A stretch of DNA of 64,000 nucleotides from Candidatus Doudnabacteria bacterium (GTDB taxonomy: Bacteria > Patescibacteriota > Doudnabacteria > UBA920), in contig CAVYGQ010000001.1 in the NCBI GenBank assembly GCA_963768175.1, forward strand, positions 100,481 to 164,480, written 5' to 3'. This document shows positions 19,792 through 63,589 of the stretch, piece by piece. A program made the position numbers and the translations under genes. Below the pieces are notes generated by a model. It was not told the origin of the DNA and did not search any database. It saw only the letters and a program-made list of their open reading frames with translations. Every line of letters begins with the position of its first letter. Position 1 is the stretch's first letter.

Positions 19792-19907
19792 ATAGTTTAA
19801 TTATACCATTTTTTAATAAAACTAAAAAACCGTCCTTTTGGGCAGTTTGGCTGGCCTTATTTGACTTAATCGGAGCTGAAATAGCTAGACTTATAAATAT
19901 TCCTTAA

Positions 19908-20537: not shown

Positions 20538-20561
20538 AAATAAATTTAAAATTCAGGATAG

Positions 20562-21026: not shown

Positions 21027-21085
21027 TAGTTTGTGGACTTAATTTTAATTACAAATTCCGCTTATATTACACACCTTTTAAAAAT

Positions 21086-21706: not shown

Positions 21707-22000
21707 ACCCCTTTCGGGATATGACCATAAGACAGTAGCTGAACGCGGGGTTCAGTATGTCTTATGGTTTTACAGCCGTGCCTGATTAAAGGTTTAGGCC
21801 ATTCAGTTGTGATTAAATTATACCAAACTTGACAACAATTTTAAAGGGGTGTATGGTGGAGTTAGTTCATTAAAAAGTTAATAATTAAACGTAAGTTTTA
21901 TTTCTCCTCCCTCGGAGTAAGACAGGGGCTATGCCGTTTTGAACACAAAAACGGTGTGGCGTTTTGACCGCTTGTCTCAGCCATTAGAGGCCTTACAAAA

Positions 22001-22207
22001 GTGTTTGTGGGGTTTAATATGTCTGGGTTCAGTAATGAGCTAAAACAGCGTTTAATTGATTATTTTCAAACGAAATACGGACAAAAACTAACCTCAGAAC
22101 AAGCTGAGGCTTTTTTATTGTCCCTTGCGAATCTGTATTCGCTGGTGGTAGAGCGGCGGGCGGGCCCGCAGGGCCAGCCCGACCGCCGCTCTACCTGTAT
22201 TACTTGA
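22001..22207 (+). CDS. Small hypothetical protein upstream of the recombinase (possible accessory or directionality factor)
   Basis: The 68-aa ORF ends in a GC-rich hairpin (gagcggcgggcgggcccgcagggccagcccgaccgccgctc). No motifs were recognised. Confidence 0.25.
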   Translation: MFVGFNMSGFSNELKQRLIDYFQTKYGQKLTSEQAEAFLLSLANLYSLVVERRAGPQGQPDRRSTCIT

Positions 22208-22322
22208 ATTAAGCTACACATAAGGGGATTTAATAATTACATAATTAATTTTAAGTTCTGTCAAAATAATTTGTATTTTTCTTTTGGTTAGATATATAAT
22301 CAAGCTAATTAAAAAATCAAAT

Positions 22323-23792: not shown

Positions 23793-23803
23793 GATTCGAA
23801 CCT
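23778..23803 (-). repeat. Partial copy of the tRNA-Gln 3' end (candidate att-site direct repeat)
   Basis: tggctggggtggTaggattcgaacct matches the 3' 26 nt of tRNA-Gln at 26228-26253 with one mismatch. Confidence 0.6.
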
Positions 23804-23931
23804 TATTAGGTCTAGAACCAAACCCTTTTAATTATGGCCATAAATGTCCTTTAATATAAGTTGGGGCAATTTAGTTTCCAAAAGTATAAAGTGCTATACT
23901 ATAATTAAATAGATTATTATAGTATATAACT

Positions 23932-24639
23932 ATGGGGAAATATCCAAAAATTAAATTTATTATTGATTTTAAAGAAGACAAAAAAAATGCGCTGAGATTT
24001 TTAGGAGATACTAATGAATGGAAAAAGGAGCGTTTTTTTCCGTCTGAGTTACAATATGTTCTACAGAATAAATTAGCACAGAAAGAAAAACAAAGGATTG
24101 TTAATAACTTTGTTAAACAGTATTTTTTAAAAAATGAGTTTGAAATTAAAATTGGGGTAAGAGCAATTGCAAATGAATGGATGTCGATTGGAAGGTATTT
24201 TTTTGATCTAGTTGACAAGCTATTTTACGACCACCCTTGGCCAAAAGGAAACTACGTGGGATATGCAAGTATTTTTAATATGTTTCCTAGAGATATTGAG
24301 AAAAAAACCTTTTCATTTCCATATCGGAAGGAAGATGTCAGTTGGGCAATAAAAGTGATAGCCCATGAAATGTTACACTTTATTTTTTTTGACTATTTAA
24401 ATAAAGTGTATAGGTATACTCAAAATACCCAAATAAAAAATAAAAATTCAAACTTCATTTGGCAATTATCAGAGGCTCTAAACAATATAATAGAAAATTC
24501 GCGATCATACCGTAAGGTCATACCAATAAAAAAATTGAGCAAGCCATATCCAGGAAACGAAAAAATTTATAAAAAACTACTGGCCCAATGGAATAAAAAA
24601 AACGATATAAAAAAGTTATTGGATAGCGCTTTAGGGTAA
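23932..24639 (+). CDS. Hypothetical protein with an HExxH motif (possible zinc-dependent hydrolase)
   Basis: It has an IAHEMLH motif and an AT-rich composition. No other similarity was recognised. Confidence 0.45.
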   Translation: MGKYPKIKFIIDFKEDKKNALRFLGDTNEWKKERFFPSELQYVLQNKLAQKEKQRIVNNFVKQYFLKNEFEIKIGVRAIANEWMSIGRYFFDLVDKLFYDHPWPKGNYVGYASIFNMFPRDIEKKTFSFPYRKEDVSWAIKVIAHEMLHFIFFDYLNKVYRYTQNTQIKNKNSNFIWQLSEALNNIIENSRSYRKVIPIKKLSKPYPGNEKIYKKLLAQWNKKNDIKKLLDSALG

Positions 24640-24796
24640 ATAAAACGGAGCCCCAATCTTGGAAGAGAGGGGCTCCGCTACGATAGCGGCAGGAACGAGT
24701 CCTTGCCTAGGCGCAGTCGTAACCGCTGTTGACAGGTACCCCAAATTCTAGACACTTAGTCTGAGGTATAATAAGGCTAGAAAGGAATCTAACTTT

Positions 24797-25063
24797 ATGC
24801 CCAAAGGCAAATACAAAGTCAGTCCGGAAGTTAAAACTCAAATTCTAAAACGAATTAAGGAAGAAGGTGTCAGCGTCACCCAGGCGGCCGAGGAGCACGG
24901 CCTGTCCACCCAAACCATTTACGGCTGGATAGCCAAAGGGGTTACAGCTCCGCCGTCCGTGCTTGAACTCTCCCGCCTGAAGCGGGAAAATCAAACCCTC
25001 CACGAGATTATCGGCCGGCTGACAGTCAAACTGTCATTGGCGGAAAAAAAGGACATTGGTTGA
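24797..25063 (+). CDS. IS3 transposase OrfA (HTH plus leucine zipper)
   Basis: An HTH (VSVTQAAEEHGLSTQTIYGW) and a heptad-Leu C-terminus are present. The gene ends inside an A7G run at 25044-25051. Confidence 0.85.
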   Translation: MPKGKYKVSPEVKTQILKRIKEEGVSVTQAAEEHGLSTQTIYGWIAKGVTAPPSVLELSRLKRENQTLHEIIGRLTVKLSLAEKKDIG

Positions 25064-25895
25064 AGACCTGTCCGCCGCTATGCACCTTGAAAATCCGACT
25101 AAGACCGAGTTGGCCAGGAGCTTGGGAGTCAGCAGAGCCAGTCTGTATTACGAACCTACCCTGCCGCAAAAAGACTGGCTCCTTAAAATCCGCATTGAAC
25201 AAACCCTGCATGACCACCCCAGCTACGGCCACAAACGGCTGGCTCCGGCGCTACATGTTAACAAGAAAAGAATCCGGCGCACCATGAGGCTGTTTGGTAT
25301 TAAGCCTTACCGCAGGACAGGCAGAAAGCTAAGAAAAGCAAGGGATTTGGGACAAATTTCCGCTCCTTACCAAAACTGGCTGATGCTGATTCCGTTTCCA
25401 GAAGAGCCGGGAATTGTCTGGGTCAGTGACTTTACCTACATATCATTCCACGGCCGGTTTGTTTACCTGGCGACGATAATAGATTTATTCACCAGGGAGG
25501 TTGTCGGCTGGTCAGTCTGGACCGCGCATAGCAGCCAGCTAGTTCTACTGGCTTTAATTGACGCACTGGAAAAACATCCGGCGGCCAAATATCTCCATTC
25601 CGACCAGGGGCAAGAATACAAATCCCGAACCTACTGTAGGCTGGCCGAACAGGCCGGTATTACAATTTCCATGAGCCACAAATCATCACCGTGGGAGAAC
25701 GGCTACCAAGAATCCTTTTATGGCAAGCTCAAGACTGACTTAGGTGATCCGGGGAGGTTTAAGACCTTGGGAGAGCTAACGGCCGAAATTTACCTCCTCA
25801 TCTACAGCTACAACCACGACAGAATCCATACATCATTAAAAATGCCGCCGTCAGCATTTGCCGACCGGCAGCGGAATCAAGTATCATTAACTTAA
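25023..25895 (+). CDS. IS3 transposase OrfB (DDE integrase core), frame open from 25023 and overlapping orfA by 41 nt
   Basis: An rve-type DDE core is present (WVSDFTYI ... HSDQGQEY ... with a downstream E). It lies in the +1 frame relative to orfA. Confidence 0.85.
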   Translation, partial: QSNCHWRKKRTLVEDLSAAMHLENPTKTELARSLGVSRASLYYEPTLPQKDWLLKIRIEQTLHDHPSYGHKRLAPALHVNKKRIRRTMRLFGIKPYRRTGRKLRKARDLGQISAPYQNWLMLIPFPEEPGIVWVSDFTYISFHGRFVYLATIIDLFTREVVGWSVWTAHSSQLVLLALIDALEKHPAAKYLHSDQGQEYKSRTYCRLAEQAGITISMSHKSSPWENGYQESFYGKLKTDLGDPGRFKTLGELTAEIYLLIYSYNHDRIHTSLKMPPSAFADRQRNQVSLT

Positions 25896-26141
25896 CCTTA
25901 AAAAACCGCAGAGAAGGTGCCTAAAGAAATGGGTACCTTACAGGGGAAATTTCTTTCAGCTCTGTATAAAATTTAGCTATTAAAAGACAAAAAAGTGTAC
26001 CTGGAATGAAGTAGGACTTCGAACCAAGATAAACAATAGTTTAGACAAAAATAAGAGCATGGACTAAAATTCATGCTCTTATTTTCTATAAGTTCTTGTC
26101 CTTTAACTTAGGGTTGGTAGGTCTGTAGGAACCAAAATTTC

Positions 26142-26205
26142 TGGCTGCCCGGGTTGGATTCGGACCAACGCATGGAGGCTCCAAAGGCCCCCTTGCCCCG
26201 CACCA
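26142..26205 (-). other. Degenerate tRNA-Gln-like remnant (pseudo-tRNA)
   Basis: tggctgcccgggttggattcggaccaacgcatggaggctccaaaggccc... parallels the tRNA-Gln 3' two-thirds, including the CTTTGGAG anticodon region. The acceptor stem cannot pair and the length is only ~64 nt. Confidence 0.4.
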
Positions 26206-26227
26206 ATTTTTAACAAATTTATTCTCT

Positions 26228-26302
26228 TTGGCTGGGGTGGCAGGATTCGAACCTGCGAATGGCGCCTCCAAAGGGCGCTGCCTTACCACTTGGCGACACC
26301 CC
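26228..26302 (-). tRNA. tRNA-Gln (anticodon UUG)
   Basis: The minus strand reads UGGGGUGUCGCCAAGUGGUAAGGCAGCGCCCUUUGGAGGCGCCAUUCGCAGGUUCGAAUCCUGCCACCCCAGCCA. It folds as a cloverleaf with U1-A72, a 7-nt anticodon loop CUUUGGA and an encoded CCA. It is close to E. coli tRNA-Gln. Confidence 0.9.
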
Positions 26303-26439
26303 AAAATAAGACAACTAAGGTATATTATAAAATAAATTCGGGAAAAAAGAAAGCCCAACCTTGAGTATGGGGAGCTTGCGGAATTTGCGTTTGACAGCCA
26401 AAATGTGCTATAATTTCTTTAGGATTAATCCCTAAATTT

Positions 26440-51438: not shown

Positions 51439-52458
51439 ATGAAGATATTAATTACCGGCGGAGCTGGATTTATCGGTTCCAACTTTGCGCATTATTGGAT
51501 AAAGCATTATCCGGACGGCCAAATTGTGGTTCTGGATAAGTTGACTTATGCCGGGAATCTAGAGAATTTATCTGATGTTATCAATCGCATAGAGTTCGTC
51601 AAAGGAGATATTTGCGATGAAGCGGTTGTCGGACGGGTAATGAAAGGCGTGGATGTGGTGGTGCATTTTGCGGCGGAAACTCATGTTGACAGGTCAATCC
51701 AAAATCCTGATGTTTTTGTCCGGACTAATGTTTTAGGCACGCAAGTTTTGCTTGAGGCGGCAAAAAAATATCAGGTAAAAAGATTTCATCACGTCTCCAC
51801 CGACGAAGTTTTCGGTAGCCTGCCGCTGGGCTCAAAAGAAAAGTGGAATGAGCAAACGCCTTACAACCCACGCAGCCCTTACTCGGCCAGTAAAGCCGCA
51901 AGTGACCATTTAGTCCGCGCTTATTATCATACCTACGGCTTGCCGATAACTATCAGCAACTGTGCCAATAACCTTGGCCCTTATATGTTTCCGGAAAAAT
52001 TAATTCCTCTTGCAATTACCAATCTTTTGGAAGGCAAAAAGGTGCCGATTTACAAACCAGGCAACCAAGTCCGCGAATGGCTGTATGTGGAAGACCATTG
52101 CAGCGGCATTGATGCGATTTTGGAAAAAGGGAAAATCGGTGAAACGTATTTTATCGGGCCCGACAATCCCGAGTTTACAAATTTGGAAGTTATCAGGAAA
52201 CTTTTGGTGCTTATGAAAGCGGGCGATGATATGCTGGAAATGGTCAGCGACCGCCCGGGGCACGACCAAAAATATGCGATGGATCATAGTAAAATATCAC
52301 GCGAACTTGGCTGGCGACCAAAGTACGGGCTGGATGATTCTTTAAAAATGCTTGTTGATTGGTATACGAAAAATCAAGACTGGTGGAAAGAGGTTAAAAG
52401 CGGGGAATATCAAAAGTATTACGAACGGCAATATAAAGGGAAAACAAATAACCGATAA
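51439..52458 (+). CDS. rmlB: dTDP-glucose 4,6-dehydratase
   Basis: The motifs ILITGGAGFIGSN and YSASKAASDHLVRAY (YxxxK) and an SDR-extended fold are present. Confidence 0.95.
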   Translation: MKILITGGAGFIGSNFAHYWIKHYPDGQIVVLDKLTYAGNLENLSDVINRIEFVKGDICDEAVVGRVMKGVDVVVHFAAETHVDRSIQNPDVFVRTNVLGTQVLLEAAKKYQVKRFHHVSTDEVFGSLPLGSKEKWNEQTPYNPRSPYSASKAASDHLVRAYYHTYGLPITISNCANNLGPYMFPEKLIPLAITNLLEGKKVPIYKPGNQVREWLYVEDHCSGIDAILEKGKIGETYFIGPDNPEFTNLEVIRKLLVLMKAGDDMLEMVSDRPGHDQKYAMDHSKISRELGWRPKYGLDDSLKMLVDWYTKNQDWWKEVKSGEYQKYYERQYKGKTNNR

Positions 52459-52521
52459 TTGATAATTAATAACTCTGGAAACTGTAAGTAGTTATCGGTT
52501 ATAAATTAATAGTTATAAGTT

Positions 52522-53376
52522 ATGGGCACTATTTTAATTCTAGGGTCGCAAGGCTTGCTAGGCGGGGAGTTTAAAAGGACTTTTTCGCGCGCTTTGGGTT
52601 GGGACAGAAAAGAAATCGATATTAGCGAGGCGGAAAGTTTGGAAAACAAAATTTTAGCGCTTGGGCAAAAGCCCGCCGCCATTATTAATTGCGCGGCATA
52701 TAATAACGTTGACGGCGCGGAAAAAGAAAAAGACAAAGCTTTTTTAATAAATGCCACGGCTGTGGGCAATTTGGCCAAGGTGTGCGGTAAATTGGATATT
52801 TTATTGGTGCATTTTTCGACTAATTACGTGTTTGACGGCGAAAAAGGCGAGTACGCGGAAATCGACCAGCCTAACCCCATATCCGTATATGGGCAGTCTA
52901 AATATGAAGGGGAAAAATTGCTGGAGGCAAACTGCTTGAGATACTATTTGATTCGGACTTCGGTTTTGTTTGGCCAGGAGGCGGAAAGCCCGTATGCGAA
53001 AAAGAGTTTTATAGAAGTTATGTTGGGTTTATCAGAAAAAACTGCTACAATTAAGGCAGTAAATGACGAAACCAACAGCCTGACCTATGCAGCCGATTTG
53101 GCCAAAGCCGTAGAGGATTTAATTGTTAAAAAGTTTTCTTACGGCATTTACCATATAATTAACAGTGGGCAAGCGTCTTGGTATGATTTTGCCAGGGAAA
53201 TTTTTAGCATCAGCGGCAAAAAAATTAATTTGGTTCCGGTAAAGTCTACGGAATTTTTGCGCCAAGCCAAGCGGCCGAAAAAAGCCGTCTTGCTGAATAC
53301 CAAACTGCCGCCGCTTCGGAGCTGGCAGGAAGCGCTGAAAGAATACTTGAATCAGGAATCAAGAAGTATGAATTAG
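52522..53376 (+). CDS. rmlD: dTDP-4-dehydrorhamnose reductase
   Basis: An ILGSQGLLGGE Rossmann motif is present, and the length and YxxxK are consistent with RmlD. Confidence 0.88.
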   Translation: MGTILILGSQGLLGGEFKRTFSRALGWDRKEIDISEAESLENKILALGQKPAAIINCAAYNNVDGAEKEKDKAFLINATAVGNLAKVCGKLDILLVHFSTNYVFDGEKGEYAEIDQPNPISVYGQSKYEGEKLLEANCLRYYLIRTSVLFGQEAESPYAKKSFIEVMLGLSEKTATIKAVNDETNSLTYAADLAKAVEDLIVKKFSYGIYHIINSGQASWYDFAREIFSISGKKINLVPVKSTEFLRQAKRPKKAVLLNTKLPPLRSWQEALKEYLNQESRSMN

Positions 53377-53381
53377 GGTCT

Positions 53382-53440
53382 CCTAATTCCTAATTCCTAA
53401 TTCCTAATTCCTAATTCCTAATTCCTAATTCCTAATTCCT
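53382..53440 (+). repeat. Heptanucleotide microsatellite (CCTAATT)x8 plus a partial unit, ending 5 nt before the rmlA start codon
   Basis: It is a perfect tandem repeat in the rmlD-rmlA intergenic spacer and replaces any recognisable RBS. Confidence 0.9.
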
Positions 53441-53444
53441 TTTC

Positions 53445-54179
53445 ATGAAAGGCATTATTCTCTCCGGCGGCAGCGGCACGCGCCTGCATCCTTTAACCAA
53501 AGTTACCAGTAAACAGCTTTTGCCGGTTTACAATAAACCGATGATTTTGTATCCGCTGGAAACCCTGCTTAAGGCCGGCATCAAAGACATTTTGATAATT
53601 ATCGCGCCGGACCACCCGGGTGACTATATGAAACTGTTGGGCTCAGGCCGCGAGTTTGGCGCCCGTTTTTCTTACGAAATTCAAGATAAGCCGGAAGGCC
53701 TGGCCCAGGCTTTTATTATTGCCGAAGATTATATTGGAAGCGATAACGTTTGCATGATTTTAGGCGACAATATTTTTGAAGACGATTTTTCCAAAACTAT
53801 CAAAAATTTCAAAAAAGGCGGGCACGTTTTTGCCAAAAAGGTGACCGATCCCCAGCGGTTCGGCGTTGTTAAATTCAACGAAAATATGGACGCGGTTAAA
53901 ATTGAAGAAAAGCCCAAGGAGTTTTTGTCCGATTACGCAATTACCGGGCTTTATCTTTACGACAATCGCGTAGTACAAGCGGCAAAATCGGTTAGGCCAT
54001 CGGCGCGGGGCGAATTGGAAATTACGGAATTGCACAACTGGTATTTAAAAAGGAATGAACTGAAAGTAGACATAGTCAAAGGGCAGTGGATAGACGCCGG
54101 CACTTTTGAATCGCTGCACCGCGCCGGCGAGCTTATGCGCCGGAAGGCATTAAATAAACCGACACCAATCCACGAATGA
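53445..54179 (+). CDS. rmlA: Glucose-1-phosphate thymidylyltransferase
   Basis: The motif MKGIILSGGSGTRLHPLT is present, with a short (244 aa) nucleotidyltransferase fold. Confidence 0.9.
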   Translation: MKGIILSGGSGTRLHPLTKVTSKQLLPVYNKPMILYPLETLLKAGIKDILIIIAPDHPGDYMKLLGSGREFGARFSYEIQDKPEGLAQAFIIAEDYIGSDNVCMILGDNIFEDDFSKTIKNFKKGGHVFAKKVTDPQRFGVVKFNENMDAVKIEEKPKEFLSDYAITGLYLYDNRVVQAAKSVRPSARGELEITELHNWYLKRNELKVDIVKGQWIDAGTFESLHRAGELMRRKALNKPTPIHE

Positions 54180-54226
54180 GACACGAATGACGCGAATCCA
54201 AACCTAAATCCGTATTCGTATCATTC

Positions 54227-55210
54227 GTGTGCGATCCGTATATTAGTGTCGCTATTATGACCAATAAAACCCAGAAAATTATCGCCGTCTCCCTTATTGC
54301 CATTGTGGTTTTTGGCGGTTTTGAGGCGCTGATTTATATTTTAAACCTTAATCAGCCGGTAATATATTTGCAGACGGCTCTGTGGATTTTTTTGTATCTG
54401 CTTTTTAATATTGTATTTTTCTTTGACCTGCATTTTAAAACTCCGGGCAGTTGGCAGAGAGCCAAAACCAAGCATCAAAATTTGGCTAAGGGGTTGGGAC
54501 GTTTTATAAAAACCGTTTTTTCCGCGTTCTGGGACCGCTTTGAGCATTTGCGGGAGCTGGAGTATTTAAAGCGATGGATTTATTTTTTACTGTTGCCCGG
54601 GTTTATTTTTTGGGCGTCGGTTTCTTTGTTTTACTCAAACTTCGGTTTCTATAAAAACCAGCAAATTATTGCCTTGTTTTCCGGTGTCGCTTTGGTGGTC
54701 TATTATTCCTATATAAAAGAAATTTTTAACCGCAAAAAAGAAGTTGTTGATAGCGATATTTTTATTGTTTTGTCGGTGATAAAAATTTATACGGCTGGCG
54801 TGCTGTTCGCGGCCAGCATGGCCATGCTAAGGAGCTATTGCCTGCAGCCTTTATATTTTAGCGCTGAGGTTTTTTGCTATACTTTTTTGCTGATTTATCA
54901 GGCGCTTTACCAGCACCGCAAAGCTAACGGTGCCACAACAGCCCAGGCTTTAATTATTTCTCTGGTCATGGCCGTTATTGGCCAGCTGGTTTATGTTTAT
55001 TGGGGATTTAATTATTTCACCGCGGCTGTGTTTTTAACCGCCTGCTATAATTTTTTCTGGGGCGTTTTCCATTACCACTTGGACAGAGCCTTGACCTGGC
55101 GGGCTTTTTTGGAAATCCTGATCATTAGCCTGATAATGGGAGGCATGGTAATTTCCGTGACCAACTTTAACGCCCGGCTTTTGGATAGCTGCCAGTATAG
55201 GGTGTTTTAA
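54227..55210 (+). CDS. Hypothetical polytopic membrane protein downstream of the rml cluster
   Basis: It has ~9 TM helices. A glycan-processing role is possible, but no motif was seen. Confidence 0.35.
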   Translation: MCDPYISVAIMTNKTQKIIAVSLIAIVVFGGFEALIYILNLNQPVIYLQTALWIFLYLLFNIVFFFDLHFKTPGSWQRAKTKHQNLAKGLGRFIKTVFSAFWDRFEHLRELEYLKRWIYFLLLPGFIFWASVSLFYSNFGFYKNQQIIALFSGVALVVYYSYIKEIFNRKKEVVDSDIFIVLSVIKIYTAGVLFAASMAMLRSYCLQPLYFSAEVFCYTFLLIYQALYQHRKANGATTAQALIISLVMAVIGQLVYVYWGFNYFTAAVFLTACYNFFWGVFHYHLDRALTWRAFLEILIISLIMGGMVISVTNFNARLLDSCQYRVF

Positions 55211-55283
55211 ACTGATCATTTAAGATTTTAAAACCCGTGGGTTTACCGCGGGTTTTTTGTTAGTTCTTGTTAATTCGTTTATC

Positions 55284-56339
55284 TTATAGCCAATACATAA
55301 ACGCAATAACGACCAAGGAAATTATCAGGACAATAAGATTGTTGAATTTTTTGTCCAAATGCCCAAGTTTTTTTTGCACGTGTTTTTGGATGTCGGAAAG
55401 CATGAGAAAAAGCAAAATAACCCCGGCAAACAAAACCAAATAGCGGTTGGCTTGGTAACCGGCCAGAGCGGAGCTGTTTAAACTGCCAATAACGGGGAGC
55501 GAAGTTTGAAAGGAGGTGGAAGAAGTCGAAGAGGCGGCAGGCTGAGAAGACACGGAAAAATTGCTTTGCGGGTTGTTTTGCGCAAACTCCTGTCCCGCTC
55601 TGGGTAAAACGGGCTGGGCAAGAGGCGAAGGTGTGGCAGGAGCGGGGGAGGGGGTTTGTGATTGCGCAGTCGTGGTTGCTGGTGCCTGTTGCAAGCCTAA
55701 AGTTTGTGGCTTAGGTGCCGGGGAAACCGGTTTGGGCGTGGCGGCAGGAGTGCTTGCGGGTACGGCAGGCGTTTTAGGTTTTGGAACGGGAGCCAGCGTG
55801 CCAAAAGTGTTGTCTATTACGGAATGGTATTGGCCGGCTGCGCTGTTACCAAAAGCAAGCCCCATGCCCTGATCCCGGAAGCCATCGTTTAAAATGTTGG
55901 CGCGGTGTTCCGGGCTGTTCATCCAGGCGTTTATTAAACTGTCGGTGTCGTAAAATTCTATGGCGATATTTTCGCCAAGCTCCAAATAAGGGGTATAGCC
56001 CGCGGCCACGATTTTATCCCAAATGTAATGGCCGTCGGGATCCACATGGGCAAAGTAGTGCCTGGCCTGCATGTCATCGCATTTGCTTTGCGCCGCCCAG
56101 GTCAGTTTGTTGTTGGTGTTTAATGTCGTTAAATCCCTTAGGGAACGTTGCTGGTTTACGGCGTTAAGAATATTGCCTGTGGTTAAATCCGAAGCTTGAG
56201 AAATCCCGTTTTGGGGGATTACCAGGGCAATAAAAACCTTTACGGCTAAAAAGGCAAGCAATAAAAGTCCAAGGGTATTGGGTTTTAGTAATCCTTGGTA
56301 ATTATCCGAATTTTGCTTAGGTAAGGGCTTTTCTGCCAT
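55284..56339 (-). CDS. CAP/SCP (PR-1-like) domain protein with Pro/Thr/Ala-rich linker and C-terminal TM anchor
   Basis: It has an N-terminal TM/signal and a CAP core (QQRSLRDL...HYFAHVDPDGH...NAWMNSPEHRANIL). The low-complexity linker is PAVPASTPAATPKPV. Confidence 0.75.
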   Translation of the reverse strand: MAEKPLPKQNSDNYQGLLKPNTLGLLLLAFLAVKVFIALVIPQNGISQASDLTTGNILNAVNQQRSLRDLTTLNTNNKLTWAAQSKCDDMQARHYFAHVDPDGHYIWDKIVAAGYTPYLELGENIAIEFYDTDSLINAWMNSPEHRANILNDGFRDQGMGLAFGNSAAGQYHSVIDNTFGTLAPVPKPKTPAVPASTPAATPKPVSPAPKPQTLGLQQAPATTTAQSQTPSPAPATPSPLAQPVLPRAGQEFAQNNPQSNFSVSSQPAASSTSSTSFQTSLPVIGSLNSSALAGYQANRYLVLFAGVILLFLMLSDIQKHVQKKLGHLDKKFNNLIVLIISLVVIAFMYWL

Positions 56340-56436
56340 AAAAAGAGGTTATGATATTCCTATTTTACCACGTAATTAACAACTTGACAAATTTTAACTT
56401 TTATGCTAGTATGCTATGTTGATATAAATTCCATAT

Positions 56437-57756
56437 ATGACCCAAGATTCTTCAATCAAAAAATATCCCCATACAACCGCTGAAGTGGCGCAAATGTTAG
56501 GTATGCACCCGACCGGCCAGAATTTGCCCATGGGCAGTTTTGCTGTTTCCGATTTGCCGGTGGCAGACTTGCCGGTGGCCGAGGATGTTGTCTCCGGCCA
56601 AAAGCAGGCGGAGCCGGCAGCTTACGCGCCTGAGTTATCCGAAAATATGGGCAATGAAAAAGCCGCTTTACCTGACGAAAGCGAACTTGAGTCAATTCAG
56701 GAAAGGGCGGCTGACCAGCCTGTTTATGTTAAAGTGGGCAAAGCGCTTTTGCCTTACGCCGCTATTTTTTTGATCGGGATATTCTTGTATTATTTCTTTT
56801 TTACCAAAGTGGATTTTACCACGGTGTTTAAATTTTCTCCCAAAGCCGCCACCCCGCAAATAACGGAAATTCAGAAATTGGAACAACAGGACGCGGCTTC
56901 ATACCAAAGTTGGGTTGCCAGTTACTATTATGATGTCAGCGACCCCAACATTTTAGACCCCGAAGCCGACAATTCCGGCAACGGCTTATCTAATTTTCAA
57001 AAGTACCTTTTGAATTTAAACCCCAAATCTTACGATACTTTGGGCTTGGGGCAAGCCGACAGCCAGAGTATTGCCATGGGCATTAATCCGCTTACAGGCG
57101 GCCCTGAAACGGATGCCCAAAAAGCCATTGTCAGCAAATATATAGACATGGAAGTGGTGATGAACCGCTTGACCTTGTCTAATATGCAAAACCCTCCGGA
57201 AGTGGCCGGAGCCAATACCTCTGACGGCAACTCCGCGGAAAGCCAAAAGTTTTCCATCAGGGGCGGGACGTCCGCAAACCAGATTAACAGCAGCCAGGTG
57301 GACATTAATACCGGCGTGCCCGGTCTTTTGGAAATTCCCGATTTAAAAATAAAGGTCCCGATTATTTGGAGCACGGATCCTAAAAATTTCGACAATGATT
57401 TACAAATTGGCGTAGTCCATTATCCGAGCACGGCTTTGCCCGGGGAAATCGGCACCGCATACATAGCCGGCCACAGCAGCAATTATGTTTGGGCCAAAGG
57501 CAGTTATAACCAGATTTTTTCCAAGTTAGGGGATTTGGCCCTTAATACCTCGTTCAAAATTACGGTTACGCAACAAAGCGGCAAAACCGCGGTGCTTGAT
57601 TATGTTGTCACCAAAATCCAGCAATACAGCCCCACCGATCAGGCGCAATTTGAGAGCTCGGATAAATCCGTTGTCGCCCTTTCCACCTGCTGGCCGGTTG
57701 GCAGCACGGCAAAAAGATTGGTTGTGTTTGGACAGCTGACGCAAGTAGTAAAATAA
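56437..57756 (+). CDS. Sortase-family transpeptidase with long N-terminal extension
   Basis: A TM helix is followed by the sortase His (YIAGHSSNY), the catalytic Cys (VVALSTCWP) and the Arg (KRLVVFG). Confidence 0.75.
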   Translation: MTQDSSIKKYPHTTAEVAQMLGMHPTGQNLPMGSFAVSDLPVADLPVAEDVVSGQKQAEPAAYAPELSENMGNEKAALPDESELESIQERAADQPVYVKVGKALLPYAAIFLIGIFLYYFFFTKVDFTTVFKFSPKAATPQITEIQKLEQQDAASYQSWVASYYYDVSDPNILDPEADNSGNGLSNFQKYLLNLNPKSYDTLGLGQADSQSIAMGINPLTGGPETDAQKAIVSKYIDMEVVMNRLTLSNMQNPPEVAGANTSDGNSAESQKFSIRGGTSANQINSSQVDINTGVPGLLEIPDLKIKVPIIWSTDPKNFDNDLQIGVVHYPSTALPGEIGTAYIAGHSSNYVWAKGSYNQIFSKLGDLALNTSFKITVTQQSGKTAVLDYVVTKIQQYSPTDQAQFESSDKSVVALSTCWPVGSTAKRLVVFGQLTQVVK

Positions 57757-57913
57757 TCTTAAATTTTACTGAGTAGACAGTGCCTATCATCGCAGTAATT
57801 TACGATGGTAGGCGTTACTCTACTCGGGCTTCGGCCGCGAGTTGCATCCCGATTTGTAAATCGGGGTGAAGTTCGGCCGATGTGCCGAGATTACAGTTCG
57901 GATCGGAGGATCC

Positions 57914-58702
57914 ATGAAAATCGCTCGTTTGAATGTAGGCCAGATTTTGGCTGTGACTATGGCAGTGCTTTTGGCACTCGCCGGCGTCCAGCCCGTTGTC
58001 GCTGCCGAACCGGCCGCGGCTTCTGATCCGGCAACCCTGACTAGGGAACGGGTCAACAAGGTCGGCCGCGGACGTTACGTAGCGGCTGATGATTTCCGGG
58101 TTAACTCGACCATAAGTTTCTCGCAGCCGGACTACAAGTTCGAGAGCCGGCTGCCGCAGGGCTTCGGTCGCGCTACCGCTAAGCATCTGGGCGTCGCTGG
58201 GAAGAGGTTCTGGAATGAGTATCCTGGCATCGGTGCGGCGCTAGTCGTAATGGCACCGGAAACGGTCCTCATTTACGACACGGTCTCCCGTGTTGCGCTG
58301 TATGTAACCGGTTGCCATCGGGAAGGGAAGAAAGGCGGACTCAACCGTATTAAGGAAGAGAATCCTCCACAACCCGAACTAACTTCCGTACCTTCTGTGG
58401 TTCCTCCCACAGAACTGAAAGGAGAACTGAAGGGTTCGCAGCCGACCCCAACTCCTACGCCTACACCGGTGCCAACGCCGATGTTGCGTGTCGACCACAA
58501 CACGACGAACGTGCACGTTGATAACAGCACGCGCATCGTCAACGTGACCGAACACAAGGCGAAATGCGGCCGAGGCTGCAAGGTAGCGATATTCATCGCC
58601 ATCGGCGCGGCCGGAGCTGCCGGAGCTGCTCTCGCGATCGGGCACAAAGGTGGCACTACCACTTGTGCCTCCTGCACAGGAGGCCCAGGACCCAGGCCAT
58701 AA
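57914..58702 (+). CDS. GC-rich secreted/anchored protein (signal peptide, PT-repeat linker, C-terminal hydrophobic segment)
   Basis: The gene is ~60% GC. It has a signal peptide (MKIARLNVGQILAVTMAVLLALAGVQPVVAAEP), a PTPTPTPTPVPTP linker and a C-terminal VAIFIAIGAAGAAGAALAIG segment. Confidence 0.45.
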   Translation: MKIARLNVGQILAVTMAVLLALAGVQPVVAAEPAAASDPATLTRERVNKVGRGRYVAADDFRVNSTISFSQPDYKFESRLPQGFGRATAKHLGVAGKRFWNEYPGIGAALVVMAPETVLIYDTVSRVALYVTGCHREGKKGGLNRIKEENPPQPELTSVPSVVPPTELKGELKGSQPTPTPTPTPVPTPMLRVDHNTTNVHVDNSTRIVNVTEHKAKCGRGCKVAIFIAIGAAGAAGAALAIGHKGGTTTCASCTGGPGPRP

Positions 58703-58823
58703 GGACCCAACGAGCACACTGGAAGGGGGTCGTCGCTTGCGACTACCCCCTCATCCTCTCCTCAATTTTTATATACTTTCAACTTTTTCGCTTATTTAAA
58801 AGGTAAATTATTTGGCTTAGGTC

Positions 58824-58852
58824 TTGACAAAACGTCAATTTGATACTATAAT
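58824..58852 (+). promoter_or_regulatory. Canonical sigma70-like promoter of the giant surface protein gene
   Basis: TTGACA (58824-58829), a 17-bp spacer, then TATAAT (58847-58852). The gene starts ~70 bp downstream. Confidence 0.65.
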
Positions 58853-58919
58853 GTGAAGTTATTAAAATTAATCATGGATTTAAGTTTGAGATAGTTTAAT
58901 AACATTTTAAGTAAATGAT

Positions 58920-61900
58920 ATGAGCATCAAAACATTCTCTAAATTTAGTATGGGCTTAAAGGTCATCGCTATTTTAGGTATTACCTCTATGGCTGTTTTG
59001 GCGTTAGTCCCTAGGGAGGCTGGCGTTTTGCTGGCAGATAATAATGCTAATTGCACTACTTCCACCACGCCGACGTTTAACCCGTATCCGGTTTCAAATA
59101 ATCCCGGTAACTGTCAGGACTACCCGTTCATCGCTTCCAAAGTAATACACAGCGATGGTTCGCAAACCGGTTTTAGTACTGGTTCAATACAAGCCCAACC
59201 CGGTGATAAAGTTGAAGTCCAATTATACATAGATAACGGAGCCGCTTTAGGTTCTCCTGCTCTAACAAATATTCAATTAACAACCAGTGCCGTTCTAAGC
59301 GCAGGTTCTTCCCATTCCGTTTCGGCTTCCGTTACAGCCAGCAATGCCAATAACTCTTTAAGCGGTAGCTTAAACATTTTAACCCCAAACAGTTCCACTT
59401 TGCAGGTTGATCCTTTAACCGGGCAATGGTACCAGCAAACTACCTCCATGGGCAATTTGGGCAATATTGTTAACACTACGACCCATTTGCCCGACCAGGC
59501 CGCTTGTTTCCCTTATGTCCGATTTATTAATATGGTTTTTGATGTTGTCGGGCAACAGGTAACCCAATCCGTTACCTTAACCGCCACGCCAAACCCTGTT
59601 TGTATTGGAGCTTTAACTACCTATTCAATAACTTCTACTGTAAATGGCCCGATTGTTTGGACCTCAACTTTTAACGGCCAACCGACCGGTGAGAACAATT
59701 CTTATCCCGGACAGAATTTAACCCCGCAAAACGGAGTGTATGTTTGGAGCGCCGTGGGTGATTATTGGGGCGATCATTTCCACAGCGGCAATCCCTTGGC
59801 CGATGTCGGTACTTGGACTAAAACGGCGACCATTAATGGCGTGCAGAGCAATACCGTAACTTTTCAGGTTAAGGATTGTACGCCCCCCGTACAAAAATCC
59901 GCCAGCATCACCGCCACTTTAGGCAGCGCCAATAAAGCTCAGTGTTTATATAACGGCAATGTGACTTGGCAGAGCAGTGGTTATGATGCCGTGGCGGTTT
60001 ACGTCCAATCGGTTGGCGCCAACGACTATTCGCTGGTGGCTGCCAACCTTCAGGGCAGTACCAATATTCCCTGGTTCATTCCGGGCAGAAATTACGAGTT
60101 TACCCTTTGGACGGTCAGTGTTTCCAACGGCGTATACACCAAAGTAAGCCAGATTGCCGATCCGGCGATTGTCAACGTGCCTGCTTTGGATTGTACCGTG
60201 CCGGTGACTTTAACCTGCAGTGCTTCTCCTATTTTAGCCAATATCAACGATCCAGTAACTTTTGGTGCTTTAGGCGGTTCCGGTCCATACTCTTGGACTA
60301 ATGGCGAAAATCCCGCCACTGGTAGTGGCCAGAGTTTTACCACCAGTTTTTCTTCAGCCGGTAACAAAACCGTGACTGTCCACAGCCAAGACGGCCAGAT
60401 TGCCTATTGCAGTGTGACTATAAAACAGCCGGTTCAGAAACCCGCGACTTTAAATTGTGCTACCCCGACCATCCAAGCCAATATTGATGATACCGTAACC
60501 TTTGGTGCTAATGGCGGCACCGCTCCTTATTCCTGGAGTAATGGTGGCAATCCTTCCAACGGTAGCGGCCAGAATTTTTCTACCAAGTTTTCTTCTTCCG
60601 GCAACAAAACGGTTACCGTCTCTAGTTCCGACGGTCAGACTGCCTATTGCAGTGTGACTATAAATCCGCCCCCCGTAAACAAATCCGCCAGCATCACCGC
60701 CACTTTAGGCAGCGCCAATAAAGCTCAGTGTTTATATAACGGCAATGTGACTTGGCAGAGCAGTGGTTATGATGCCGTGGCGGTTTACGTCCAATCGGTT
60801 GGCGCCAACGACTATTCGCTGGTGGCTGCCAACCTTCAGGGCAGTACCAATATTCCCTGGTTCATTCCGGGCAGAAATTACGAGTTTACCCTTTGGACGG
60901 TCAGTGTTTCCAACGGCGTATACACCAAAGTAAGCCAGATTGCCGATCCGGCGATTGTCAACGTGCCTGCTTTGGATTGTACCGTGCCGGTGACTTTAAC
61001 CTGCAGTGCTTCCCCTAATCCGGTTGACATTAACAATCCGGTTATCTTTACCGCCACTGGCGGCGCCGCTCCTTATAATTGGAGTAACGGCGGCTATCCT
61101 TCCACCGGCAGCGGCCAGAGCTTTTCCACTACTTATTCCACAGCCGGCACCAAGACAGCTACGGTTTCCAGTTCCGACGGCCAGACCGCTAACTGCAGCG
61201 TGGTTGTCAAGCCGACAGTACAGCAAAATGCCCAGTTAACTTTGACTAAACAGGTCAAGAATCTGGGTCCCAGCCAGACCACCCTTTATGATAAAAGCGT
61301 GCTGGCCGAGCAAGGCGATGCCGTCCGCTATCTAATAACCGTAACCAATATCAGCTCCGTAACCGCCAACAATGTTTCAGTGACGGATACTCAAGGATCA
61401 AGTGCCGGTAATGTTACGACTTCCGGGTCAAACGGCAGTGCTGTTCCAATTTCTGGCAGCTTACAAAACGGTTTAAACTTCGGCTCTTTAGCCGCCGGAA
61501 GTTCGGTTTATATTACCTATACTTTACCGGTAAATGTCAACAGCGGCAGCATTGACAATACGGCAACGGTCAGCGCTTCCAATGCCAACAGTGCCAGCGA
61601 TTCGGCCGTTGTTACTATTACAGCAATTCCTATTTGCCAGGCCGACAGCAATTTTGCCTTAAACGCTTCTACTCCGGTCAAAAACGGCTCAAGCTATTCG
61701 GTTACTTTAACTTGGTCTTCCACAGGGAATAATCAAATTAAAATCACCCAAATTAATCCGGGCGCCGGTTATGAAAATACTATAGCCATCGGCAGTTCGA
61801 GTGGCAGTCAAACTATTAACGGCCTACTTCCGGGCAGCACTTACATCTTTAAGATGTATGATGTTTCTTGCAGCCAATTTTTAACCTCCGTCCAGGTTGT

Positions 61901-63338
61901 TACTCCTTCTAATCCGGGTCAGCTGACTTGTTCTGTTCAAAGTTCAACCATCAATTCGGGCTCTGCGGCTAACTTTACCGCCCAGGGCGGCATGGCTCCT
62001 TATAACTGGAGCGGTGATGGCAGTCCGTCAAGCGGAAGCGGTTCTTCTTATAATCCGGTTTACACCAACACTACTACGTCTTCCATAAATCACAGTGTTT
62101 CGGTTACAAGTTCCGACGGCCAGACCGCTAACTGCAGCGTGGTTGTTAACGGCCAGCAGCAAAATAACGGTAACATCAATAATAATTGCGTCAACAATTC
62201 CTGCAACGACACGACTAATAATACGGATAACTCTGTCAATAACAGCAATAATCCAATCACAACCAACACCGACAATTCCATTAATAATAGCTATAATAAC
62301 ACCAGCTCAATAAATGACAGCTACAACAATTATACCTATAACAACACGGTATATATTAGCAGCAACGGCAATGTGGTGCCGGCTAATCAGTTCAGCCAGC
62401 TCTCTATAACCAAAAGCGTCAGGGATGTTTATAACAATTATAACAGTTACAACAACTATTATAACGGAAGCTTCAGCAACAGCGTCAGCGCCAATAACGG
62501 CGATACCGTGCAGTTCCAAATTGTGGTCAGTAACAGCGGCTCGGCGACCGCCAACAACGTGCGCGTTACCGACATCCTGCCTTCGGGATTGAATTTGGTT
62601 TACGGCAGCGTAACGGTTAACGGGAGCCAGGCTTCCGACAACAATCTTTCCAACGGCATGTATTTGGGCAGCTTAAGCTCCAGCCAGTCGGAAACCATAA
62701 CCTTTTCGGCTACGGTTTCGGGATACGGCTCTTCCAGTAGCATCCAAAATACGGCTACAGCCAGTTCAGATAATGCCGGTTCGGTTCAGGCCAGCGCTTG
62801 GGTATTTGTTAACGGCAACGGCAATGTTTTGGGCGGCAACGTTAATTTAACCTACAGCAAGAGCGCGCTTAACAACACCAAAAATCAAGACGCCACCGCG
62901 GTAGCCGCATCCAGGGAAGACTTTATTACCTACACTTTGACCGCTTCCAACAGCGGCAACACGCCAGCTACCAATTTCATTATTACCGATGATTTATCCC
63001 AGGTTTTGCCTTATGCCGACATGACAGACTTCGGCGGCGGCAGCCTAAACGGCAATGTGATTACTTTCCCCGGGATAACCGTGCCGGCCAACGGTAGCGT
63101 CACCAGGAGCTTTGAGGTTAGGGTTAAGTATTCGCTCTCTAGTAATTTAAGCTATGTTATGACTAACACTTACGGCAATACCGTGACCATTAGGATTAAC
63201 ACCCCGCAAGTCTTAGGCGCCTTTACCGCTCCCAAGACCGGCGCGGACACCAATGCCTTTGTCTTTGCCGGAATCTTAACGTCCGGACTTGCGATCTACA
63301 AAAAGAAAAATTTGCTGATGAAATTGATATTTAATTAA
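58920..63338 (+). CDS. Giant (1472 aa) repeat-rich cell-surface protein with candidate sortase sorting signal
   Basis: The N-terminus has a signal/TM segment. Several ~90-aa Ig-like modules are present (TFGA.GG.APYSW.NG.NP..GSGQ.F.T.FSS.G.KTVTV.S.DGQ.A.CSV.), with three DUF11-like domains and an Asn-rich low-complexity tract. The C-terminus reads TAPKTG, then a hydrophobic stretch, then KKKN. Confidence 0.8.
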   Translation: MSIKTFSKFSMGLKVIAILGITSMAVLALVPREAGVLLADNNANCTTSTTPTFNPYPVSNNPGNCQDYPFIASKVIHSDGSQTGFSTGSIQAQPGDKVEVQLYIDNGAALGSPALTNIQLTTSAVLSAGSSHSVSASVTASNANNSLSGSLNILTPNSSTLQVDPLTGQWYQQTTSMGNLGNIVNTTTHLPDQAACFPYVRFINMVFDVVGQQVTQSVTLTATPNPVCIGALTTYSITSTVNGPIVWTSTFNGQPTGENNSYPGQNLTPQNGVYVWSAVGDYWGDHFHSGNPLADVGTWTKTATINGVQSNTVTFQVKDCTPPVQKSASITATLGSANKAQCLYNGNVTWQSSGYDAVAVYVQSVGANDYSLVAANLQGSTNIPWFIPGRNYEFTLWTVSVSNGVYTKVSQIADPAIVNVPALDCTVPVTLTCSASPILANINDPVTFGALGGSGPYSWTNGENPATGSGQSFTTSFSSAGNKTVTVHSQDGQIAYCSVTIKQPVQKPATLNCATPTIQANIDDTVTFGANGGTAPYSWSNGGNPSNGSGQNFSTKFSSSGNKTVTVSSSDGQTAYCSVTINPPPVNKSASITATLGSANKAQCLYNGNVTWQSSGYDAVAVYVQSVGANDYSLVAANLQGSTNIPWFIPGRNYEFTLWTVSVSNGVYTKVSQIADPAIVNVPALDCTVPVTLTCSASPNPVDINNPVIFTATGGAAPYNWSNGGYPSTGSGQSFSTTYSTAGTKTATVSSSDGQTANCSVVVKPTVQQNAQLTLTKQVKNLGPSQTTLYDKSVLAEQGDAVRYLITVTNISSVTANNVSVTDTQGSSAGNVTTSGSNGSAVPISGSLQNGLNFGSLAAGSSVYITYTLPVNVNSGSIDNTATVSASNANSASDSAVVTITAIPICQADSNFALNASTPVKNGSSYSVTLTWSSTGNNQIKITQINPGAGYENTIAIGSSSGSQTINGLLPGSTYIFKMYDVSCSQFLTSVQVVTPSNPGQLTCSVQSSTINSGSAANFTAQGGMAPYNWSGDGSPSSGSGSSYNPVYTNTTTSSINHSVSVTSSDGQTANCSVVVNGQQQNNGNINNNCVNNSCNDTTNNTDNSVNNSNNPITTNTDNSINNSYNNTSSINDSYNNYTYNNTVYISSNGNVVPANQFSQLSITKSVRDVYNNYNSYNNYYNGSFSNSVSANNGDTVQFQIVVSNSGSATANNVRVTDILPSGLNLVYGSVTVNGSQASDNNLSNGMYLGSLSSSQSETITFSATVSGYGSSSSIQNTATASSDNAGSVQASAWVFVNGNGNVLGGNVNLTYSKSALNNTKNQDATAVAASREDFITYTLTASNSGNTPATNFIITDDLSQVLPYADMTDFGGGSLNGNVITFPGITVPANGSVTRSFEVRVKYSLSSNLSYVMTNTYGNTVTIRINTPQVLGAFTAPKTGADTNAFVFAGILTSGLAIYKKKNLLMKLIFN
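59895..60226 (+). repeat. 332-bp internal direct repeat, copy 1 (identical copy at 60681-61012)
   Basis: By eye the two stretches are nucleotide-identical, with a period of 786 bp (262 aa). Confidence 0.85.
60681..61012 (+). repeat. 332-bp internal direct repeat, copy 2
   Basis: See copy 1. Confidence 0.85.
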
Positions 63339-63589
63339 GACGCGAATTTTGCGCGTAAGTAGGGGCGGCCATTGGCCGCCCCTAACTTTGTTTTACTGAT
63401 TATTTCGGGCAGGAATTACATTGTTTGTGGATATGTTACAATAGCTTAGAGTTTTAGCCGTATTTAAGACTACTTGCAATAAAGGATAAAAGTGCTATTA
63501 TAAATTAAACGGCGTAATAATAAACAAAAACAAACAGCCCAAAAGAGCTGTTTTATTTGTAATATTGGAAAAATCAGAAAATCAGATAA

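Follow-up and report, generated by a model that had tools for sequence, protein, structure and literature searches.

How do the ultrasmall bacteria of the Candidate Phyla Radiation (CPR, Patescibacteria) build their surfaces and attach to their hosts? Both processes remain largely obscure and, to our knowledge, the characterised surface structures of CPR are limited to type IV pili and, more recently, Pam pili. A locus of Candidatus Doudnabacteria, coding for a sortase and a giant surface protein, poses this question in concrete form. The locus is part of a 64-kb stretch of DNA, referred to here as the window, out of a genome of roughly 0.95 Mb (~949 kb). Sortases are enriched in CPR genomes (PMC6744442), and the literature that we searched contained only general statements, with no description of sortase substrates or motifs in CPR, Patescibacteria, Parcubacteria or Doudnabacteria. 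Our analysis makes it probable that the locus represents a sortase-dependent surface-display system of this lineage. It is composed of three open reading frames (ORFs) on the same strand (56437–57756, 439 aa; 57866–58702, 278 aa; 58920–63338, 1472 aa), and their coordinates match those given in an initial annotation of this DNA. That annotation had described the sortase as encoded two genes upstream of the giant protein; the sortase gene is indeed upstream, but only one gene lies between them. The features of the pair are as follows.

56437–57756, plus strand: sortase gene, 439 aa (family matches, invariant residues, AlphaFold2 model and Foldseek comparison).
57914–58702, plus strand: accessory membrane protein, 262 aa from ATG 57914, in an ORF open from GTG 57866.
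58920–63338, plus strand: giant surface protein gene, 1472 aa (ORF, Pfam/NCBIfam matches and orthologue conservation profile).
63228–63242, plus strand: APKTG codons, aa 1437–1441, with predicted cleavage between T and G (position, TIGR01167 alignment and orthologue invariance).
63243–63335, plus strand: rest of the sorting signal, namely 19 uncharged residues (ADTNAFVFAGILTSGLAIY), KKK and NLLMKLIFN.

The sortase assignment is well founded. The protein matches Pfam PF04203 with 74.2 bits (cutoff 26.6) over residues 298–434 and TIGR01076 with 44.9 bits (cutoff 39.35), and all 60 orthologues match sortase superfamily models. The catalytic residues that the initial annotation had proposed, a histidine, the cysteine of LSTCWP and an arginine, correspond to H346 (in GHSSNY), C418 and R427 and are invariant among these orthologues. 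According to the AlphaFold2 model, a disordered N-terminal cytoplasmic region (residues 1–95) is followed by a transmembrane helix (96–122), a helical ectodomain (~140–255), a low-complexity linker and the catalytic domain (~291–439). The catalytic domain was modelled with a pLDDT of about 85–96, and the ectodomain was also modelled confidently. Foldseek matched the model to solved sortases with E values from 2e-11 to 1e-9, a probability of 1.0 and 19–28% identity, and together the model and these matches display the eight-stranded beta-barrel fold of sortases.

The class of this enzyme proved less conventional. Its scores against the NCBIfam class models remain below the respective cutoffs, with 51.2 bits for class C (cutoff 160), 49.9 for class D (165), 51.0 for SrtD (140), 44.5 for class E (160) and 23.2 for class F (166), and the class A and B models gave no match at E<=0.01. 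This below-cutoff pattern is common to all 60 orthologues. Foldseek likewise matched class C, A and D structures about equally well, with no class B structure among the best 50 matches. The sortase is thus assignable to none of classes A–F by the NCBIfam cutoffs, and its structure indicates no clear class either.

Two regions outside the catalytic domain are also conserved. The cytoplasmic N-terminus carries the motifs KKYP..T.EVAKMLG and LPVA.LPV, and the ectodomain contains the following feature.

56854–57201, plus strand: conserved helical ectodomain of the sortase, between transmembrane helix and catalytic domain, holding the invariant DNSGNGLSNFQKYLLNLNPKSYDTLGLG.

This domain found no match among solved structures in the PDB. 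Its invariant stretch (DNSGNGLSNFQKYLLNLNPKSYDT / DPEADNSGNGLSNFQKYLLNLNPKSYDT, at 56956–57048, residues ~174–204) looks, when read by eye, like a thrombospondin-type-3 or DxDxDGxxDxxE calcium-binding repeat in which Asn, Gln, Ser or Lys stand in for the acidic residues.

Because the best similarities include class C enzymes (PDB 5k9a, 7d6t, 6ixz and 2w1k, at E about 1e-11; class C model, 51 bits), we considered whether the enzyme could polymerise pili in the manner of class C, with the giant protein as the polymerised pilus subunit or tip adhesin. The class C score falls far short of its cutoff of 160 bits, and structures of classes A and D score alike. The transmembrane helix of the AlphaFold2 model is N-terminal only; the protein ends right after the last beta-strand without a C-terminal transmembrane anchor, and we identified no lid segment. 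Each locus encodes one protein with a sorting signal and no second pilin gene, and the giant protein contains neither a YPK pilin motif nor an E-box. The pilus hypothesis, which we regard as scarcely credible, was rejected on the absence of pilin motif, E-box and second pilin.

The substrate signal is found at the C-terminus of the giant protein, which reads ...VLGAFTAPKTG-ADTNAFVFAGILTSGLAIY-KKK-NLLMKLIFN and can be divided into the segments ...PQVLGAFTAPKTG / ADTNAFVFAGILTSGLAIY / KKK / NLLMKLIFN. The isolated tail scores 22.4 bits against the TIGR01167 LPXTG_anchor model (cutoff 15.9), in an alignment that runs from the Pro of P-K-T-G, placed on the P-x-T-G of the model, to KKK, placed on its basic tail. 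In addition, a fragment of an orthologue is named “LPXTG cell wall anchor domain-containing protein” by NCBI. The protein combines an N-terminal signal peptide with the C-terminal hydrophobic segment and basic tail. The tripartite signal of the initial annotation therefore stood as regards TAPKTG, the hydrophobic stretch and KKK; the protein does not end at KKKN as had been stated, since LLMKLIFN follows and is conserved in orthologues, among which an LxxLIF[TSN] ending recurs. The distance from the G of the motif to the first basic residue is 19–21 residues in 40/41 orthologues and 24 in the divergent locus L053.

Conservation of the motif was evaluated in two sets of sequences. A scan of species-representative genomes yielded 78 sortase loci, and a profile of the tail was run on all their ORFs. 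In the 41 loci with a tail match, the residues around the motif were distributed as follows.

Position −2: F in 35 and Y in 4.
Position −1: V in 26, I in 9 and T in 6.
Position 1: A in 41/41.
Position 2: P in 41/41.
Position 3: K in 36/41.
Position 4: T in 41/41.
Position 5: G in 41/41.

An exhaustive comparison of the 55-aa tail with 1.84 billion representative proteins returned 66 matches, all at the extreme C-terminus, and a word-indexed homologue search with the tail alignment returned 7 short fragments only. Combining the 66 proteins with short fragments from the latter search gave 70 independent tails, for which a regular expression counted APKTG 57 times, APRTG and APTTG 4 times each, and APATG and APHTG once each. 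Three tails misassigned by the expression turned out on reading to be one APKTG and two PPKTG, so that 68/70 carry APxTG and 2/70 PPKTG. As the tail passes TIGR01167 and is conserved at the extreme C-terminus in 41 species loci and 66 representatives, the resemblance to a sorting signal is more than chance. The initial annotation had named loss of the motif in orthologues, or canonical LPxTG proteins better suited to the sortase, as grounds for abandoning its proposal; the motif is conserved as described, and neither the window nor the 78 related loci contained an LPXTG-type tail.

The strict L-P-x-T-G pentapeptide is absent, position 1 being Ala, with P, T and G present and invariant. The description of the motif as non-canonical consequently holds for this Ala; the rest is canonical, the tail passes the LPXTG-anchor model, and xPKTG is a natural signal for Clostridioides difficile SrtB. 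We read the motif as only mildly non-canonical, deviating at position 1 alone.

The same C-terminus could in principle be an uncleaved transmembrane anchor, with APKTG as a conserved linker and the sortase acting on something else. The whole C-terminal 330 residues are highly conserved (50–74% identity), so that conservation of five residues could reflect general orthology, and the 9-residue extension after KKK is atypical. Yet A, P, T and G are invariant in 41/41 sequences while x and the flanking positions vary, and the tail passes a curated LPXTG-anchor model. Moreover, divergent small proteins that are otherwise unrelated retain [A/P]PxTG, a hydrophobic segment and a basic tail beside sortases. 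We consider an uncleaved anchor very improbable.

The pairing of enzyme and substrate extends well beyond this genome. Sortase homologues numbered 548 at E<=1e-3, and those with names belong to Candidatus Doudnabacteria or Patescibacteria. In each of the 41 loci, exactly one tail match (E<1e-5) was found downstream of the sortase on the same strand, in proteins of 355–2354 aa, and in 17/41 the tail-bearing gene directly adjoins the sortase gene. In four further loci the giant ORF runs off the end of the locus, and three (L055, L056 and L065), with sortases 35–36% identical to the query, are without a tail protein. The sortase-substrate pair of the initial annotation thus recurs as a conserved gene order. 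In divergent sortase loci, the enzyme is accompanied by small proteins with YVAPNTG, FVAPKTG, YVPPETG or RVSPQTG endings, and small YVAPNTG, FVAPKTG or YVPPETG proteins are retained after the sortase even in divergent loci without upstream synteny. Two loci from the same metagenome-assembled genome (MAG nzgw383; L004 and L052) represent two copies of the whole region from CAP gene to sortase, with sortases 54% and 56% identical to the query and, in L052, a substrate of only 566 aa; they reflect either a true duplication or a mixed bin.

The counts of adjacency have to be read against the surroundings of the pair, which comprise the following features.

51439–56339: conserved envelope neighbourhood (rmlB, rmlD, rmlA, polytopic membrane protein and CAP protein), kept in at least 40 related genomes.
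54227–55210: polytopic membrane protein, 327 aa, between rmlA and the CAP gene.
55284–56339, minus strand: CAP/YkwD-domain membrane protein, with a CAP domain match in Pfam/NCBIfam scans; divergently transcribed, conserved neighbour of the sortase.
56384–56412, plus strand: promoter-like site upstream of the sortase gene, TTGACA-17-TAGTAT, the −10 element being preceded by TG; a predicted site with a 10/12 consensus match only.
58824–58852, plus strand: sigma-70 consensus promoter TTGACA-17-TATAAT of the giant gene, 12/12, about 68 nt before the ATG.
63360–63384, plus strand: intrinsic-terminator-like hairpin just after the stop codon of the giant gene, with an 11-bp stem, 9 G-C pairs and a T-rich tail.

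Over ~10 kb the order rmlB, rmlD, rmlA, 327-aa membrane protein, CAP gene (divergent), sortase, optional accessory gene and giant gene is collinear in at least 40 loci, and in other loci an epimerase-like gene downstream of the giant gene is part of the collinear region. Because the whole neighbourhood is collinear, adjacency of sortase and giant gene alone overstates their functional coupling, and the raw counts are weaker than they look.

This collinearity is compatible with the sortase being a general housekeeping enzyme with several scattered substrates, beside one of which it lies through conserved gene order. The two genes appear to have separate promoters, the 64 kb examined represent a small part of about 949 kb, and the single sortase of C. 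difficile serves about eight xPxTG proteins (PMC4155245). The evidence from relatives opposes such a role, as the 563 kb of DNA flanking the pair in the 41 loci contained no second tail and no LPXTG-like tail. Three observations point to a functional linkage beyond collinearity: the pairing is kept where the upstream genes have been lost; the four functionally required residues of the motif are exactly those that are invariant; and tail-bearing representatives (66) are about as numerous as species loci with this sortase type (roughly 65). We therefore regard a housekeeping role with scattered substrates as unlikely, and favour a sortase coupled to the giant protein that follows it.

What is the protein that would be displayed? 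Its 1472 residues comprise a signal peptide (~1–40), a conserved N-terminal domain (~41–215), a variable stalk of Cys-bracketed Ig-like modules, DUF11-type domains at ~775–900, 1188–1285 and 1310–1425, and the C-terminal sorting signal. PF01345 (DUF11) and TIGR01451 match across three stretches, above their cutoffs, with 87 and 74.5 bits, respectively, and weaker matches correspond to BiPBP_C, PKD-like and DUF7507 domains. Four modules of ~80 aa each end in S(S/Q)DGQ(T/I)A(Y/N)CSV, and an Asn-rich tract occupies about residues 1080–1180. The giant signal-peptide protein with Ig-like modules, three DUF11 domains and an Asn-rich tract was accordingly as the initial annotation had portrayed it, with modules of ~80 rather than ~90 residues. 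Among 40 orthologues, the N-terminal ~215 residues are kept at 25–32% identity and the C-terminal ~330 at 50–74%, while the middle differs in length and module content. Of three conserved cysteines in the N-terminal domain, two are invariant and the third occurs in at least 90% of sequences; the domain also carries the motif AQxGDExxVRIYVHNGA.

The protein contains 21 cysteines, several of them paired at module borders. Pairs such as C433/C497, C513/C577, C695/C759 and C1004/C1072 bracket the ~80-aa Ig-like modules, and the window also contains a gene for a DsbA-like thioredoxin (9793–10593, plus strand). Together, these suggest that the stalk modules are disulfide-stabilised. Within the stalk, we also identified a duplication.

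59881–60226, plus strand: first copy of an internal duplication of ~346 nt; the second copy is at 60667–61012, 786 nt downstream.

The copies are 99% identical over 300 nt and share about 332 consecutive identical bases, and the flank after them is only about 70% alike. This pattern could have arisen by recombination between modules in the recent past, by gene conversion among them or, possibly, through a collapse or expansion during assembly; near-identical internal duplications are typical of recombining repeat proteins. A signal-peptide-like N-terminus is conserved across the orthologues. Their signal peptides (residues 1–45) share an APR motif near the end of the hydrophobic core. About 6–8 residues further on, an A precedes E or D, which two residues separate from a conserved Cys; the pattern suggests a processing site shared by the orthologues.

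The promoter of the giant gene is conserved as well. The consensus TTGACA-17-TATAAT promoter of the initial annotation is exact, and a 12/12 promoter is found within 250 nt upstream of the orthologous gene in 21/41 loci and an 11/12 promoter in 7 more; among 250-nt windows taken at random from these loci, 1.1% contain a 12/12 match. The promoter context is alike between loci, TTGACAaa...(t)gTATAATtatAGGTTA. At 58824–58870 and the equivalent sites of the 28 loci, TTGACAaa is followed by an A-rich spacer often ending in tg or gcg, with TATAATtatAGGTTA after the −10 element; these shared features could mark strong promoters and start sites in this lineage. Conservation of a consensus promoter before the giant gene suggests that this gene is very highly expressed.

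Two functions can be envisaged for such a protein. With stalk repeats and an anchor it has elements of the grammar of fibrillar adhesins, namely an N-terminal tip, stalk repeats and a C-terminal sortase anchor (Monzon et al, PMC8286594). Their definition there includes a recognised adhesive domain, and the N-terminal domain of the giant protein matches none. On this architecture we consider the protein a putative fibrillar adhesin or abundant surface fibril. The role of host adhesin put forward in the initial annotation is plausible from the architecture, and a highly expressed surface coat would fit equally well.

Anchored in the same way, the giant protein could be an abundant structural coat, S-layer-like or fibrillar and possibly rhamnose-glycosylated, rather than a host adhesin. 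The perfect or near-perfect promoter in 28/41 species, compared with a background of about 1%, would be consistent with very high constitutive expression. Ser, Thr and Asn constitute 36% of the protein, and the gene lies in an envelope cluster with rmlB, rmlD, rmlA and the polytopic membrane protein, to which other loci add the epimerase-like gene downstream. In Gram-positive bacteria, S-layer glycoprotein genes often have rml genes as neighbours, and cryo-electron microscopy reveals surface layers on CPR cells. The conserved promoter, the rml neighbourhood and the Ser/Thr/Asn content together make a possibly glycosylated coat a serious alternative to a host adhesin. On the other hand, Pfam and NCBIfam scans of the giant protein detected no SLH or other S-layer domain, no glycosyltransferase was identified adjoining the giant gene, the rml linkage may be mere collinearity, and a conserved tip on a repeat stalk of variable length would rather be expected of fibrillar adhesins (PMC8286594). 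Taking both sides together, we judge the coat possible but somewhat unlikely; it is not mutually exclusive with a role in host adhesion.

The mechanism of the display system that we favour would, by analogy, be ordinary sortase-mediated wall anchoring. The giant protein would be transcribed from its own, apparently very strong promoter and exported by the Sec pathway through its N-terminal signal peptide, and the C-terminal hydrophobic segment with the KKK stop-transfer tail would hold it in the membrane. There, the neighbouring membrane-anchored sortase is expected from homology to cut APKTG between Thr and Gly using Cys418, assisted by His346 and Arg427, with a thioacyl intermediate as the predicted result. 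Resolution of this intermediate by an amino group of a peptidoglycan precursor would leave the giant protein covalently attached to the cell wall. Since the window also codes for a penicillin-binding protein transpeptidase, MreB and MraW, in addition to the DsbA-like protein, Lgt and rmlB/rmlD/rmlA, the organism appears to make a peptidoglycan wall as a possible target of attachment. The conserved N-terminal domain would then form the exposed tip of a stalk that varies in length and is built of Ig-like and DUF11 modules bracketed by disulfides. Recurrence of the arrangement in more than 40 related species argues for a real lineage-specific variant of the ordinary Gram-positive mechanism.

Several points weigh against this interpretation. 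Cleavage, nucleophile and wall attachment are all inferred. The Pfam model Gram_pos_anchor (PF00746) gave 19.0 bits, just under its cutoff of 20, and the 9 residues beyond the basic cluster make the tail longer than typical signals. Gene order is kept over ~10 kb, so adjacency is in part plain collinearity. The scan of this genome for other sortases or substrates covered 64 kb of roughly 0.95 Mb, so that a one-to-one relation of enzyme and substrate is likely rather than proven. Finally, a binding function finds no support from homology, because the N-terminal domain has no recognisable relative: nothing significant was detected in Pfam at E<=10, in the PDB by sequence or in the PDB with a 29-sequence profile. 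A word-indexed homologue search with the N-terminal 230 residues came back empty, and did not recover the query itself either.

Comparison with characterised systems places the Doudnabacteria pair among known sortases and sets it apart from each of them. Like Staphylococcus aureus SrtA, which anchors protein A and the MSCRAMM adhesins, the enzyme would be a cysteine transpeptidase of type II membrane topology, and it has the His/Cys/Arg triad and the sortase beta-barrel; the substrates of both share a signal peptide, N-terminal tip, repeat stalk and tripartite C-terminal signal, the Doudnabacteria tail passing TIGR01167. In contrast to SrtA, position 1 of the motif is an invariant Ala instead of Leu, no class A model is reached, and the enzyme adds a cytoplasmic N-terminus of ~95 aa and a conserved ectodomain of ~115 aa, both absent from SrtA. 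Genes for SrtA are usually unlinked to their many substrates, whereas the Doudnabacteria sortase gene adjoins an apparently single one.

Dedicated loci are represented by S. aureus SrtB-IsdC with NPQTN, Bacillus SrtD with LPNTA and actinobacterial SrtE with LAXTG. These class B, D and E loci resemble ours in placing a specialised sortase beside one or few substrates with a private pentapeptide variant. The differences concern the motif (APKTG), the enzyme lineage and the host of the system, a member of the CPR rather than of the Firmicutes or Actinobacteria; against the class D, E and F models the enzyme scores 50, 44 and 23 bits with cutoffs of 160–166, and no class B match was obtained.

For SrtB of C. 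difficile, SPKTG and PPKTG are substrates, cut between T and G, and LPETG is not one (PMC4155245). Its natural xPKTG motifs, the two PPKTG tails among our 70, and the possession of a single sortase in a genome without canonical LPXTG proteins liken that system to the Doudnabacteria one. Differences include the class B affiliation of SrtB, to which neither a model nor the top 50 structures connect our enzyme, its about eight scattered substrates, and Ser or Pro at position 1 where Ala is found here. Among known signals, the (S/P)PxTG type of C. difficile SrtB is nearest to APKTG, and it is only the motif that resembles that system. According to a review, F40, a variant engineered from S. aureus SrtA, has a preference for Ala at position 1 and can ligate peptides with APKTG (PMC9126251). 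F40 is a laboratory-evolved beta6-beta7 loop mutant of low activity, whereas in Doudnabacteria a wild-type enzyme family seems to use APKTG naturally. Within the literature searched, the F40 substrate was the only occurrence of APKTG in a sortase context.

Taken together, these features define a lineage-specific form of sortase, with Ala in the substrate where others have Leu, a position outside classes A–F and an extra conserved ectodomain. Beyond the initial annotation, our analysis adds that the pair is conserved throughout the phylum and the Ala invariant, that the sortase fits no class and carries an ectodomain of unrecognised type, and that a perfect promoter is conserved before the giant gene. 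We tentatively raise, while still doubting it, a more far-reaching hypothesis: the enzyme would found a CPR-specific sortase class defined by a private, natural specificity for Ala at position 1 (APKTG) that is orthogonal to LPXTG, by a helical ectodomain not seen before, by a long cytoplasmic N-terminus with two conserved motifs, and by essentially a single giant substrate. In such a class, the ectodomain might recognise the conserved PQVLGAF segment that precedes the motif, or might hold the enzyme in place at the wall, and the one very highly expressed giant substrate per genome would be the main surface fibre of the organism for host contact.

The locus offers a concrete pair for the study of CPR surfaces, with one enzyme, one motif and one abundant-looking giant protein kept across a candidate phylum. 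Adhesin surveys based on regular expressions for LPxTG, LPxTA, NPxTG, LAxTG, NPQTN or LPxGA (PMC8286594) would miss APKTG proteins. A natural APKTG-tuned sortase could also serve orthogonal protein ligation; so far, only the engineered low-activity SrtA variant F40 is reported to prefer APKTG (PMC9126251).

The gene between the pair encodes a membrane protein for which ATG 57914, with GGAGG 5 nt upstream, is the likely start. It begins with a signal peptide, has a variable body that includes a PT-rich linker, and continues through a C-terminal transmembrane segment rich in Gly and Ala into a Gly/Pro/Cys-rich tail ending in ...GGPGPRP; it found no match in Pfam, NCBIfam or the PDB. At least one gene intervenes between sortase and substrate in 24/41 loci; the 17/41 loci without one indicate that the accessory gene is not essential to the pair. 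Phmmer connects the accessory protein of the window to intervening genes of 9 other loci, in a family that diverges fast. Most of the intervening genes encode a signal peptide, a Gly/Ala-rich C-terminal transmembrane segment and a Gly/Pro-rich tail ending in ...G.P. Such type I membrane proteins occur in L008, L012, L017, L020, L024, L028, L031, L036, L040 and others, with tails often ending in ...GGRP, ...GGKP or ...PRGP, and the tails of the window protein and of L040 contain Cys-x-x-Cys.

On the other side of the sortase, 47 loci have a CAP homologue as the immediate upstream neighbour, on the opposite strand. The CAP/YkwD-domain protein has a Pro/Thr/Ala-rich linker and a C-terminal transmembrane segment, and the 327-aa polytopic membrane protein next to it matched nothing in Pfam, NCBIfam or the PDB. 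An Rfam scan detected no RNA element within the sortase/giant locus. Elsewhere in the window, it identified a LOOT RNA (RF03000; 21690–21800, minus strand) with 70.3 bits against a gathering score of 46.4, located at the 5' end of a gene for a DUF2726-domain protein (21086–21706, minus strand) with slight overlap. The surrounding stretch (~19900–26300) has a GC content of 0.35–0.37, compared with about 0.45 elsewhere in the window. It holds the DUF2726 protein, a large serine recombinase (22284–23792) and an rve-type integrase (25056–25895), adjoins a tRNA-Gln gene (26229–26303), and looks like an integrated mobile element.

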